Both the position numbers and the translations under genes were made by a program. A stretch of DNA of 62,763 nt, counting the filler, from Basidiobolus ranarum (Eukaryota): assembly GCA_040143965.1 (NCBI GenBank). It is 31 parts of 31 records of this genome, joined end to end, with 100 filler letters (N's around TTAATTAATTAA, not from the genome) between each part and the next. Parts side by side here need not be neighbours in the genome. Positions count along the whole stretch, not along the records: positions 32,514 to 34,439 come from JASJQH010004071.1; 30 more parts are not named here. One strand, given 5' to 3'. Each line of letters opens with the position of its first letter. The stretch's first letter is position 1. The notes beneath the pieces are model-generated. The model ran no database searches. It was given only the letters and a program-made list of their open reading frames with translations, and was not told the origin of the DNA. Below are positions 32,414-34,539 of this stretch, piece by piece.

Positions 32414-32513
32414 NNNNNNNNNNNNNNNNNNNNNNNNNNNNNNNNNNNNNNNNNNNNTTAATTAATTAANNNNNNNNNNNNNNNNNNNNNNNNNNNNNNN
32501 NNNNNNNNNNNNN

Positions 32514-32657
32514 AAGAACAGTGTCGGAATCTAAACCTTCCTTGATAAGCTCACTGCTCAAATCGGACATAACTGTATAAATTATATCCGCAACAATCTT
32601 GTTGGCAGATCCAACAATCTCCTCGAATGTTTTCTTTTCCAAGTTATCCTGACTCAT
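32514..32657 (-). CDS. Orphan protein N-terminus (truncated), putative viral
   Basis: Open from ATG to the contig edge; divergent from the RNAP ORF across a 113-bp AT-rich gap. Confidence 0.6.
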
Positions 32658-32770
32658 CGATGATTTATTTTATGAATCTTAAATAATTCCCATTTAGTAA
32701 CGACGTTGAAATGTTCAATCCAAAAAAGTGTAACATTATAAAATTCAACGAGAAATAATATACGTGAATT

Positions 32771-33847
32771 ATGGAACCCGGAACCCCAATAGGAATTTTA
32801 TCGGCTCAGGAAGTTATGAGAGTTGCCACACAGAGTAACCTCAGCTCCTTTCATGCAATTGGGTTGGAGAGTGGTTCAGAGAGTTCTTCAACAAGCTTGA
32901 AAATGTTTTCTGGGAACGAAGTTCGTATGTTACATCCAGGAATAAAAGAAATCATGGATTTACCGCTAACACAAAAGATGTCATCTATGATAATATCAAA
33001 TGCCAGCGATGACGTTTTCAACAAAGATATAATGGAAATAACTTTCAAGAGTTTGGTTCTAGGGATGACCAATAGTTTCTTGGATATAAAGGATGATGAT
33101 TCGTGGTACGATATTGGTATTTCGTTGGATTTATTTCCAGATGTTGCTAAGTTAAAGAACAGCGATACACGAATAAGATTTTATTTGGATACGCAAAAGT
33201 TATATGCCATAGGGGTTAGATCATTGGATGTATTTGGTGATACGTTGTTTTCGAATCACGATGTTACGTATTCTCCATTTTTTATGGGTATTATAGATGT
33301 GTACCATGGCGACAAAGATGGTTTGATAGATTGTTTGCAGGCTCTAGACAAAAGAGCTTTTGGTATACCTGGAATTAGGCATCTTGGCAGGAATCAGAAT
33401 GGAGAGATTATTACTCATGGATCAAATATCAAAGAAGTTTCGAGGCTTAAGAATATAAAGATCAAAGATATATATTCCAATAATATTAGAGACGTAGAAA
33501 GATGTTTAGGTGTTGAGGCAGCCAGAAATGTAATTAGACAAGAATTGTCTAGAATGTATGACAGAGATCCTTTGCATCCAACTTTAATTGCAGATTTCAT
33601 GACATGGCACGGAAAAATAACACCATTTACGAAGAACAATCTTCATCTAACGAACAGAGGGTTTTTGTCATCCATGGCATTTGAGAAGGCTAAGAAAGAC
33701 GTACGTTTGTCGACGAGAAACAAATTGGTTGACAAGGGAGACTCGGTATACTCGTCTATAATAATAAATGGTACAATACCGCTAGGGACTGGGAACAAGA
33801 ACTTTGAGATATTAGAGCAAGATATAAGTTCCAATGATTTTGAGTAA
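32771..33847 (+). CDS. Stand-alone C-terminal half of DNA-directed RNA polymerase largest subunit (RPB1-C / RpoA''-like), divergent, likely large DNA virus
   Basis: MEPGTPIGILSAQ..ATQSNLSSFHAIG (trigger loop; cf. [28 protein letters not shown]), GIPGI, THGSN, SNNIRDVERCLGVEAARNVI..EL, HPTLIADFMTWHG, MAFE, IIINGTIPLGTG; intronless, no CTD heptads. Confidence 0.92.
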   Translation: MEPGTPIGILSAQEVMRVATQSNLSSFHAIGLESGSESSSTSLKMFSGNEVRMLHPGIKEIMDLPLTQKMSSMIISNASDDVFNKDIMEITFKSLVLGMTNSFLDIKDDDSWYDIGISLDLFPDVAKLKNSDTRIRFYLDTQKLYAIGVRSLDVFGDTLFSNHDVTYSPFFMGIIDVYHGDKDGLIDCLQALDKRAFGIPGIRHLGRNQNGEIITHGSNIKEVSRLKNIKIKDIYSNNIRDVERCLGVEAARNVIRQELSRMYDRDPLHPTLIADFMTWHGKITPFTKNNLHLTNRGFLSSMAFEKAKKDVRLSTRNKLVDKGDSVYSSIIINGTIPLGTGNKNFEILEQDISSNDFE

Positions 33848-33998
33848 AGTAGTTTTTAAAAGAAAATAAATTTAATACTTTCTTGAATTCGAAAATATCT
33901 AAATAATGTTCAAGTGATTATATAAAGTTGTAAGCTATTGGATATATATAGGATTGAGTCTATAAATTCTTAACATTCAGATCAAATTTTTATAAATC

Positions 33999-34439
33999 AT
34001 GAATACTGGCGAAAAAGGAACTAAAAAGTCTAACGAGGATGTGTTTTCTTTGGCGAAAAGTTTAGGCGAGTTGGCCATGGATATTTCCGGGGAAGCTATT
34101 CAGGAGCCTATAGAACATTCCGACGAAAGGGTGTTTAAATTAAGGTTTACCAGAAAGCAATTCGAAGATTTCAGAGATGCATGTAACATGATTAGGAAGA
34201 TTGGGAACGATAAAGATTTGGCAAAAATTTTAAGTCAAAGGTTGGAAATCACCGAAAAAAGTTTTCAGTCGAAGGTTATTAATCCGGTATGTGCTTCTCC
34301 ACTAAAACTTATTAAGCCCAAGCAAAAGAATAAGCCAGTGGATGATAACAGAGAGAAGAAGATTACATTTTTCACCAAATCTGTACCAACTAATAAGAAA
34401 GTAAAGAAGTTGCACAAGAAGGTGTCTACCATCAAAGAT
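33999..34439 (+). CDS. Orphan Lys-rich protein (truncated), putative viral
   Basis: 147 open codons to the contig edge; 151 bp after the RNAP stop; TATAAATC immediately before the ATG. Confidence 0.7.
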
Positions 34440-34539
34440 NNNNNNNNNNNNNNNNNNNNNNNNNNNNNNNNNNNNNNNNNNNNTTAATTAATTAANNNNN
34501 NNNNNNNNNNNNNNNNNNNNNNNNNNNNNNNNNNNNNNN

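Follow-up and report, generated by a model that had tools for sequence, protein, structure and literature searches.

A stand-alone C-terminal half of a virus-type RNA polymerase largest subunit on a small contig of Basidiobolus ranarum

The window analysed here, a stretch of 62,763 nucleotides from a Basidiobolus ranarum assembly, is made up of 31 unrelated small contigs of 1,936-1,920 bp each, ordered by size and joined end to end by 30 identical artificial linkers of 100 bp (N44-TTAATTAATTAA-N44). The gene described in this work, RP1c, is located on a 1,926-bp piece (32514..34439) bounded on both sides by linkers, one at 32414..32513 that splits it from an unrelated retrotransposon contig and another at 34440..34539 that splits it from the next, also unrelated, contig. 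Given this construction of the window, the context of RP1c is limited to 257 bp on the upstream side and 592 bp on the downstream side, and the retrotransposon pieces found past the artificial linkers, which separate contigs, are not its neighbours. The window is a reminder that an apparent neighbourhood across linkers carries no meaning. Neither RP1n, the other half of the subunit, nor the NCLDV core genes D5, DNAP, SNF2, capping enzyme, RPB2 and RPB5 were found on the remaining 30 contigs.

RP1c (32771..33847, plus strand) encodes a stand-alone C-terminal half of the largest subunit of a virus-type multisubunit RNA polymerase, as indicated by Pfam, PDB and fold matches, an AF2 model and a phylogenetic tree. 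The ORF is intact and comprises 358 amino acids, from an ATG at 32771 to a stop codon at 33845-33847, with an in-frame TGA (32765-32767) two codons 5' of the ATG. RNA_pol_Rpb1_5 (PF04998) is the sole Pfam match (E 2.4e-17, 63.7 bits vs a cutoff of 28.5), and residues 2-293 of the protein span positions 69-261 of the 267 positions of this profile. The ORF corresponds to Rpb1 domain 5 only, between the trigger loop and GTG. The trigger-loop motif TQSNLSSFH (residues 20-28; 32828..32854, plus strand) was aligned with TQMTLRTFH of the Sulfolobus A'' chain 2y0s_C, with Q, L, F and H retained, and at six of its positions (T20, Q21, L24, S25, F27 and H28) conservation among 58 family members reaches 90% or more. 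The C-terminal motif LGTGN occupies residues 338-342 and aligns with LGTG of Sulfolobus A'', its GTG (residues 339-341) being located at 33785..33793 on the plus strand, so that the two motifs follow each other in the expected order. After LGTGN there is a tail of 16 residues (17 after GTG), devoid of heptad repeats and of a CTD. The ORF is colinear with its homologues in the alignment, indicating that it has no intron, and its GC (0.368) and GC3 (0.359) are near the values of host genes in the window. The original description of a complete, intronless ORF beginning with MEPG, running from the trigger loop to GTG and lacking a CTD was therefore borne out by the ORF itself, the Pfam match and the alignment.

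Two AT-rich spacers, whose lengths had been given correctly at the outset, flank RP1c. The first (113 bp, 24.8% GC; 32658..32770) lies between RP1c and a divergent ORF on the minus strand, of which the first 48 codons are present before it is cut at the contig end (32514..32657), and presumably holds the promoters of both. The second (151 bp, 19.9% GC; 33848..33998) precedes another ORF on the plus strand (33999..34439), represented by its first 147 codons, lysine-rich near its end and also cut at the contig end. Both neighbouring ORFs are orphans, as originally noted, with no Pfam match above cutoff and no tblastn match in seven related loci described below (L001-L007); for the 147-codon ORF, an Atlas search gave no usable match. 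In five relatives the motif AAAATGA is enriched ahead of genes, but the contig, the 113-bp spacer included, has no exact copy of it. All three ORFs are open and the coding share of the contig is 86%. Its CpG observed/expected ratio of 0.91, in agreement with the normal CpG content originally noted, is the highest among the 31 contigs of the window, 22 of which (including those bearing retroelements) fall at 0.00-0.26, one at 0.42 and eight at 0.68-0.91. An old, silenced viral relic would be expected to look unlike a contig with open ORFs and such a ratio.

In sequence comparisons with the PDB, RP1c matched Pol I, II and III chains and ASFV RPB1, but the best matches were archaeal A'' chains (E 2.1e-16), and some relatives of RP1c are labelled 'subunit A"' by JGI. 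These results could point to rpoA''/Rpo1C of an archaeon or to part of a cellular RPA1, RPB1 or RPC1 gene of a fungus, an origin that we regard as extremely improbable. Archaeal Rpo1C resembles RP1c in being a separately encoded C-terminal part that starts before the trigger loop, and it provides the best matches in the PDB in sequence and fold alike. Nevertheless, residue 2 of RP1c is aligned with residue 65 of Sulfolobus A'', meaning that RP1c lacks about 64 residues found at the N-terminus of A'' and that the viral split lies that much further downstream. Moreover, A' and A'' are encoded side by side in archaea, whereas in the relatives of RP1c the two halves lie apart. A fungal Pol I, II or III subunit was rejected on other grounds, namely the stop two codons upstream, the lack of an intron and of a CTD, and the presence of domain 5 only, from position 69 of the profile.

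The AF2 model was built from 58 sequences (pLDDT 85.7) and replaced a poor model based on 11 sequences (pLDDT 51.9). Its query-normalised TM-scores against archaeal A'', Pol II and ASFV RPB1 ranged from 0.53 to 0.66, and the archaeal A'' fold match had an E-value of 2.3e-16. In BFVD, the first match of the predicted structure was a 764-aa protein of Pithovirus sibericum (W5S5Z3, E 1.2e-17), tied with invertebrate iridescent virus 3 (E 1.5e-17) at identities of 16-23%, and several entries of 690-890 aa labelled 'Pithovirus LCPAC' or Orpheovirus also aligned with the model. The Pithoviridae and Orpheovirus pieces are only 14-19% identical to RP1c, their E-values are tied with those of iridovirus, ascovirus and mimivirid entries, and the pithovirus RNA polymerase pieces are about twice the size of RP1c. 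The fold search on this model confirms the fold of RP1c, but does not resolve among NCLDV families or between these and archaeal A''. The link to pithoviruses that had been proposed agrees with a published placement by DNA polymerase (discussed below) and with the first BFVD match, although the match itself is tied with an iridovirus.

The two closest homologues of RP1c are ORX91242.1 of Basidiobolus meristosporus CBS 931.73, encoded on a 92,587-bp contig (76% identity), and a 358-aa protein encoded on a 4.6-kb contig (81% identity); beyond these, the next relatives are at most 42% identical. At E<=1e-30, a profile search retrieved 79 cluster representatives, almost all with lengths of 300-450 aa. 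No named virus was returned by the family-profile protein searches, longer proteins included, and the only named proteins were those of B. meristosporus, the chytrid Clydaea vesicula, microsporidian RPA1/RPB1 and Ascochyta. A scan of IMG/VR with the family alignment produced 64 pattern matches, none of which was confirmed.

In a tree of 82 rows, RP1c grouped with P0002 and P0003 (support 100) within a clade of 42 rows (support 100), 41 of which are stand-alone C-terminal halves; the remaining one is a gene model from a chytrid, fused and 1,158 aa long. This clade is apart from archaeal A''-like rows, which start some 70 residues earlier, and from full-length subunits, while the microsporidian RPA1/RPB1 and Ascochyta rows are on the opposite side of the tree from RP1c. 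Every row beyond the Basidiobolus trio lies at a path length of 1.26 or more from RP1c. The tree contains no labelled viral outgroup, with neither the named NCLDV nor the moss RP1c sequences among its rows, and for this reason its assignment to a published lineage is based on the homologue in B. meristosporus and on gene content. There was no placement of RP1c inside a cellular clade, which stands against an archaeal or cellular origin and agrees with the original contention that RP1c is neither a fungal Pol I, II or III subunit nor an archaeal A''.

Seven of 121 metagenome pattern matches (loci L001-L007) encode relatives of RP1c. Their loci hold RP1n (673 aa), RPB2, RPB5, PolB, a D5 primase-helicase, a capping enzyme, an SNF2 helicase, XPG/FLAP and UDG, and a separate RP1n together with NCLDV core genes is present in L003, L004 and L007. 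The company of D5, capping enzyme and PolB genes is a further argument against a cellular gene; together with the clade of stand-alone halves, these surroundings of NCLDV-type replication and transcription genes uphold the virus-derived origin first suggested. The two halves tile the domain, with RP1n covering positions 1-52 of the Rpb1_5 profile and RP1c beginning at position 69, but they are separated by about 3 kb in L007 and 8 kb in L003 and are on opposite strands. Since RP1n and RP1c are non-adjacent in the relatives, the missing upstream half is normal for the lineage. The absence of an N-terminal half had been correctly described for the contig, but it concerns only 257 bp. A DUF5757 protein conserved in the relatives had no sequence match in the PDB.

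A lineage with these features has already been reported from a moss and from fungi. The work of Maumus et al. (2014, Nat Commun 5:4268, PMC4083422) describes the RP1n/RP1c split in NCLDV-like regions of Physcomitrella patens and considers this gene fission a likely signature of a viral lineage. According to the same study, the families present in these regions include D5, DNAP, FLAP, UDG, mRNA capping, SNF2, RPB2 and RPB5, and the copies show no transcription and carry methylation resembling that of repeats. The moss regions thus share with our data the same fission and gene families matching those of L007, L003 and L004; they differ in being methylated and silent, whereas CpG is undepleted in the copy studied here despite the depleted repeats of the genome. 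In fungi, endogenous 'fundsalphaviruses' were described in 14 genomes, with B. meristosporus and B. heterosporus among the named hosts (Gong, Zhang and Han 2020, Virus Evol 6:veaa008, PMC7017919). They share RP1c, RP1n, D5, a D6/D11-like SNF2 helicase, a SAM methyltransferase, RPB2 and RPB5, and were placed near Pithovirus by their DNA polymerase (PMC7017919). The gene set of the metagenomic relatives matches the lists of these two studies. The original description of the virus as undescribed is therefore not supported: the RP1c gene is real but known, being in all probability a further copy of a lineage reported in moss in 2014 and in Basidiobolus in 2020. This particular copy is probably outside the tables of the fungal survey, as the latter used DNA polymerase and its flanks as probes and the 1.9-kb contig has no DNA polymerase. 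It resembles the fundsalphavirus RP1c in being a stand-alone C-terminal half of RNA polymerase subunit 1 in a Basidiobolus host and differs in being intact, while stops and frameshifts are stressed in the published elements (PMC7017919).

The presence of this lineage in two Basidiobolus species (PMC7017919) also bears on whether the contig might derive from another organism in the sample, or its virus, unrelated to the fungus. Such contamination would account for a 1.9-kb contig that lacks a host junction and is among the smallest of a fragmented assembly, and the more distant relatives of RP1c do come from environmental metagenomes. We nonetheless consider it very unlikely, because the two nearest relatives are 76-81% identical, one of them being annotated in the nuclear assembly of B. 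meristosporus, and the next ones do not exceed 42%.

Taken as one explanation, the identity of RP1c, its membership in the fundsalphavirus lineage and its persistence as an integrated viral relic are probable. RP1c would be the C-terminal half of a largest subunit that is split in two, in a multisubunit RNA polymerase encoded by a virus. It would include the trigger loop, elements of the jaw and cleft, and the GTG region near the C-terminus, and would belong to the NCLDV-like lineage known from moss and fungal genomes, for which a relationship to Pithovirus has been reported. When such a virus replicates, RP1c would assemble with a separate RP1n, which would contribute the clamp, active site and bridge helix, and with RPB2 and RPB5; the resulting small RNA polymerase would then be responsible for viral transcription, alongside the capping enzyme and SNF2 helicase of the virus. 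The gene found here is most likely part of a relic integrated in the genome of a Basidiobolus-type fungus, young or unmethylated enough to have kept intact ORFs and normal CpG. Integration of this copy is an inference, and the lack of host sequence and of a host junction on the 1.9-kb contig counts against it.

A different origin for the contig, from a virus or virus-like episome that persists and replicates in the fungal culture, would fit the absence of host sequence, the three open ORFs with their high coding share and the CpG ratio, which contrasts with repeat contigs nearly free of CpG. It would also fit the pattern of substitutions within the Basidiobolus-type trio, in which variation touches just 4 of the 74 columns conserved in the family but 79 of the 181 that are poorly conserved or unaligned (Fisher p 1.7e-10). 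Because substitutions spare family-conserved columns, the divergence of the trio seems to have taken place under selection for polymerase function. However, purifying selection on both RP1n and RP1c was also reported for the moss and argued to precede independent integrations (PMC4083422). The moss evidence is the same in kind as that for the trio, and selection of this sort would give the same pattern in integrated copies. Additionally, the contig with the B. meristosporus homologue measures 92.6 kb and belongs to a nuclear genome assembly, GC and GC3 of RP1c resemble those of host genes, and no exogenous virus of the lineage came up in the literature searches. In the published fungal elements, integration was argued from long contigs, stops and frameshifts; polymerase genes were reported to carry such stops and frameshifts, and retrotransposons lay alongside (PMC7017919). 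On balance, we consider it unlikely that the contig came from a live virus or episome.

The selective constraint could alternatively reflect a viral gene domesticated by the fungus and kept for its own use, in line with ORFs of 358-359 aa that are intact in three lineages, 75-80% identical and spared in their conserved columns. Yet a polymerase C-terminal half would serve no purpose in the absence of RP1n and RPB2 of matching type, and the ORFs next to RP1c on the contig are compact orphans that have no introns and are separated from it by AT-rich spacers of viral style. Domestication is, in our opinion, highly improbable.

The finding alone adds little, and its modest value lies in the condition of the copy. 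The lineage is so far known only as genomic relics and metagenome sequences. Given the intact ORFs, the signs of purifying selection and the undepleted CpG, there is a small chance that the element is no fossil and could be a still-active NCLDV-like virus or episome persisting in Basidiobolus. If so, this would give the moss and fungus lineage its first extant member tied to a culturable host. As the copy is intact, apparently constrained and undepleted in CpG, and its host can be cultured, Basidiobolus is a reasonable place to seek a living member.

A last comparison concerns the cytoplasmic linear virus-like elements of yeasts (pGKL2 type), set beside RP1c by description only. The two-subunit polymerase of these elements is reduced and NCLDV-related, its C-terminal part being a small separate piece, and is encoded next to genes for a capping enzyme and a helicase. 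This piece is far below 358 aa, and the large subunit is a fused beta/beta'. One of the metagenomic relatives, the 30% identical L004, carries RP1c alongside a protein-primed PolB (PF03175), a feature unique among the relatives and shared with the yeast elements.

The 358-aa ORF at 32771..33847 (+ strand) is an RP1c gene, that is, the separately encoded C-terminal half of a virus-type RNA polymerase largest subunit. It is virus-derived and probably belongs to a lineage that is already in print, as is its host genus. RNA_pol_Rpb1_5 is the one Pfam family that it matches (E 2.4e-17; 63.7 bits vs a cutoff of 28.5), with residues 2-293 corresponding to profile positions 69-261 of 267, and a TGA read from the sequence lies in frame two codons 5' of the ATG. 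At E<=0.01, 37 distinct PDB chains match by sequence. The best are archaeal A''/Rpo1C chains (2.1e-16), and behind them come Pol I, II, III and ASFV RPB1; the match to human RPC1 pairs residues 1-348 with residues 1027-1363 of the 1390 in that chain. When aligned to Sulfolobus A'', EPGTPIGILSAQEVMRVATQSNLSSFH pairs with the trigger-loop segment and IPLGTGN with the C-terminal LGTG, after which 16 residues devoid of heptad repeats precede the stop. The original prediction, which described an ORF holding only the C-terminal part of the subunit, from trigger loop to GTG and lacking a CTD, was accurate in these as in all its other observed features.

The window (1-62763) is artificial: it strings together 31 contigs, ordered by length from 1,936 down to 1,920 bp, with 30 identical 100-bp linkers (44 N + TTAATTAATTAA + 44 N) between them, and therefore any features spanning or adjoining across a linker are artefacts. 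Positions 32514..34439 are exactly contig 17 (1,926 bp), so the pieces of Ty3/gypsy-like reverse transcriptase and protease that flank it across the linkers are not its true neighbours, and the real context of RP1c is limited to the 257 bp before it and the 592 bp after it. The spacers on either side have the predicted lengths of 113 bp (24.8% GC) and 151 bp (19.9% GC). The flanking ORFs (48 and 147 codons, each truncated by the contig end) are orphans, as had been proposed, with neither a Pfam family above cutoff nor a match in seven related metagenomic loci (L001-L007), and the 147-codon ORF had no usable Atlas match. The claim that an upstream N-terminal half is missing holds within the contig, but it covers just 257 bp.

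With 11 sequences the structure model was of low quality (pLDDT 51.9), while 58 gave a good one (pLDDT 85.7, pTM 0.79) that has a single disordered stretch at residues 34-45. A fold search of BFVD returned 37 entries at E<=0.001; all 29 bearing a name are from Nucleocytoviricota, 28 of them DNA-directed RNA polymerases and one 'J7L' of Tanapox virus. The best entry, from Pithovirus sibericum (E 1.2e-17, 16% identity), is tied with one from invertebrate iridescent virus 3 (1.5e-17, 23%). Among PDB folds, the top match was archaeal A'' (2.3e-16), ahead of Pol II and ASFV. The predicted model thus confirms the polymerase fold; fold matches give no placement. Compared with other family members, the three Basidiobolus-type proteins (see below) have about 14 extra serine-rich residues (residues 34-57, window 32870-32941) directly after the trigger-loop helix, where the disordered stretch of the model falls.

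A word-indexed protein search with 2,129 candidates yielded 12 proteins at E<=0.001, one of them the window's own. Two are close homologues: an unnamed 358-aa protein with 81% identity, on a 4.6-kb contig, and ORX91242.1 of Basidiobolus meristosporus CBS 931.73 (359 aa, 76%), on a 92,587-bp contig; the remaining ones (310-380 aa, 23-34% identity) originate in metagenomes and run assemblies. When 1.84 billion representatives were searched with a profile, 5,811 matched at E<=0.001; at E<=1e-30 there were 79, mostly of 300-450 aa. From 193 proteins we picked 82 tree rows (45 family members, 22 second-tier proteins and 15 long ones trimmed to the matched region) for a quick maximum likelihood search under LG+G4, with SH-aLRT support only. 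No named NCLDV sequence is among these rows, the near and longer protein searches having returned none.

The window protein groups with its two close homologues (support 100), then with two more unnamed proteins (98) and at the next level with a 38-row set (95), all within a 42-row clade (100) in which 41 rows are stand-alone halves, the exception being one chytrid gene model. Across the branch lie the other 40 rows: proteins matching from about 70 residues in, as archaeal A'' does, and full-length subunits, including named microsporidian RPA1 and RPB1 and an Ascochyta protein. In this tree the window protein thus does not sit on a short branch inside a cellular clade, the placement that would have spoken against the original prediction: from every row other than its two close homologues it is separated by 1.26 changes per column or more. 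In the chytrid Clydaea vesicula, a 1,158-aa gene model (P0033, 41.5-kb contig) has an RP1c of the same family (residues 23-322) fused to Helicase_C. It probably represents two viral genes merged through eukaryotic gene prediction, and suggests that this fungus carries the lineage too.

A metagenome scan matched 121 stretches, seven of which encode relatives (L001-L007); a scan of IMG/VR gave 64 matches, none confirmed as a relative. The seven loci are compact, with genes on both strands. L007 encodes a helicase, a capping-enzyme-like protein (mRNA_cap_C and methyltransferase matches, both below cutoff), an XPG/FLAP nuclease, a D5 primase-helicase, UDG, RP1c, GNAT, a CCCH zinc-finger protein, RPB5, the N-terminal half RP1n and a DUF5757 protein. 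L003 has RPB2 (874 aa), D5, DUF5757, RP1c, a family B polymerase (748 aa) and RP1n, and in L001 RP1c adjoins a 773-aa family B polymerase. The RP1n of L007 (673 aa) comprises Rpb1 domains 1-4 and runs 52 positions into domain 5, so that the halves meet, RP1n covering domain 5 profile positions 1-52 and RP1c 69 onward. Their genes lie 3-8 kb apart on opposite strands, and therefore a lone RP1c is the normal state in this lineage. The clade of stand-alone halves, together with this NCLDV-type gene company, upholds the virus-derived reading.

That the element was undescribed, as originally proposed, proved wrong, since lineage, split and host genus are all in print. Gong, Zhang and Han (2020; PMC7017919) reported that 14 fungi from six phyla harbour endogenous NCLDV-like elements ('fundsalphaviruses'), naming B. 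meristosporus and B. heterosporus among the hosts; by DNA polymerase they placed these elements near Pithovirus sibericum, and they put the moss sequences inside the group. Their survey was probed with DNA polymerase, which contig 17 lacks, so the contig is probably missing from their tables. Maumus et al. (2014; PMC4083422) described RP1n and RP1c in Physcomitrella patens, with omega<1 for both, and regarded the split as a likely signature of the viral lineage, comparing it with the archaeal one. In Archaea the cut also precedes the trigger loop and falls in broadly this part of the subunit, but some 64 residues closer to the N terminus (RP1c residue 2 = A'' residue 65). The moss gene list (D5, DNAP, FLAP, UDG, SSB, capping methyltransferase, SNF2, RP1n, RP1c, RPB2, RPB5 and TFIIS; PMC4083422) agrees with the content of L007, L003 and L004. 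Our literature searches found nothing for Basidiobolus with Nucleocytoviricota and PMC7017919 alone for Basidiobolus with NCLDV, as for the term 'Fundsalphavirus'; for RP1c or RP1n, only these two papers were relevant among the matches listed.

The contig is 86% coding, and each of its three ORFs is open. Variation within the Basidiobolus trio affects 4/74 conserved columns (at least 60% conserved across the other 55 family members), 23/103 middling ones and 79/181 poorly conserved or poorly aligned ones (Fisher p 1.7e-10 between the extremes). Variation avoids conserved columns, and therefore the trio diverged under selection for function. The same pattern also results, as Maumus et al. (PMC4083422) argued, if selection acted on free viruses that then inserted independently. 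CpG o/e is sharply bimodal in the window (22 contigs at 0.00-0.26, one at 0.42, eight at 0.68-0.91). Values are 0.03-0.04 for both retroelement ORFs measured and 0.77-0.79 for four host-type genes (RGS, enoyl-CoA hydratase, cation ATPase and a Pol delta-like fragment), a distribution that suggests C-to-T decay of repeats alone, either methylation-driven or RIP-like. The viral contig sits in the high-CpG class with the highest value of the 31 (0.91), in keeping with the normal CpG content predicted for it; GC and GC3 of the RP1c ORF resemble the values of host genes. CpG would also survive in an insertion that was recent or unmethylated. Open ORFs, spared conserved columns and high CpG speak against a long-dead relic, without thereby proving activity, and we consider it unlikely that the element is still active; if it were, its culturable host would make it worth examining.

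Related loci (L002 and L003 vs L001 and L004-L007) span 25-53% GC and CpG o/e 0.42-1.42 with the same gene set, and therefore composition is no guide to lineage membership. The DUF5757 protein (526-694 aa) is kept in three loci (L007:16098-18182, L003:5419-6999 and L004:666-2513) and had no sequence match in PDB. In L001 and L004-L007, AAAATGA occurs in sense direction at most 80 nt upstream of 18 of the 45 ORFs, with a density of 5.28 per kb upstream of ORFs vs 0.34 per kb for the same loci as a whole, both strands counted; it is likely a promoter element of these viruses and is absent from the window contig. L004 encodes a SNF2-type helicase, DUF5757, UDG, RP1c and a 944-aa polymerase of protein-primed type (PF03175, E 1.2e-24; L004:12855-15689, - strand), where L001 and L003 have family B polymerases of 748-773 aa. 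The combination in L004 recalls the cytoplasmic linear virus-like elements of yeasts.
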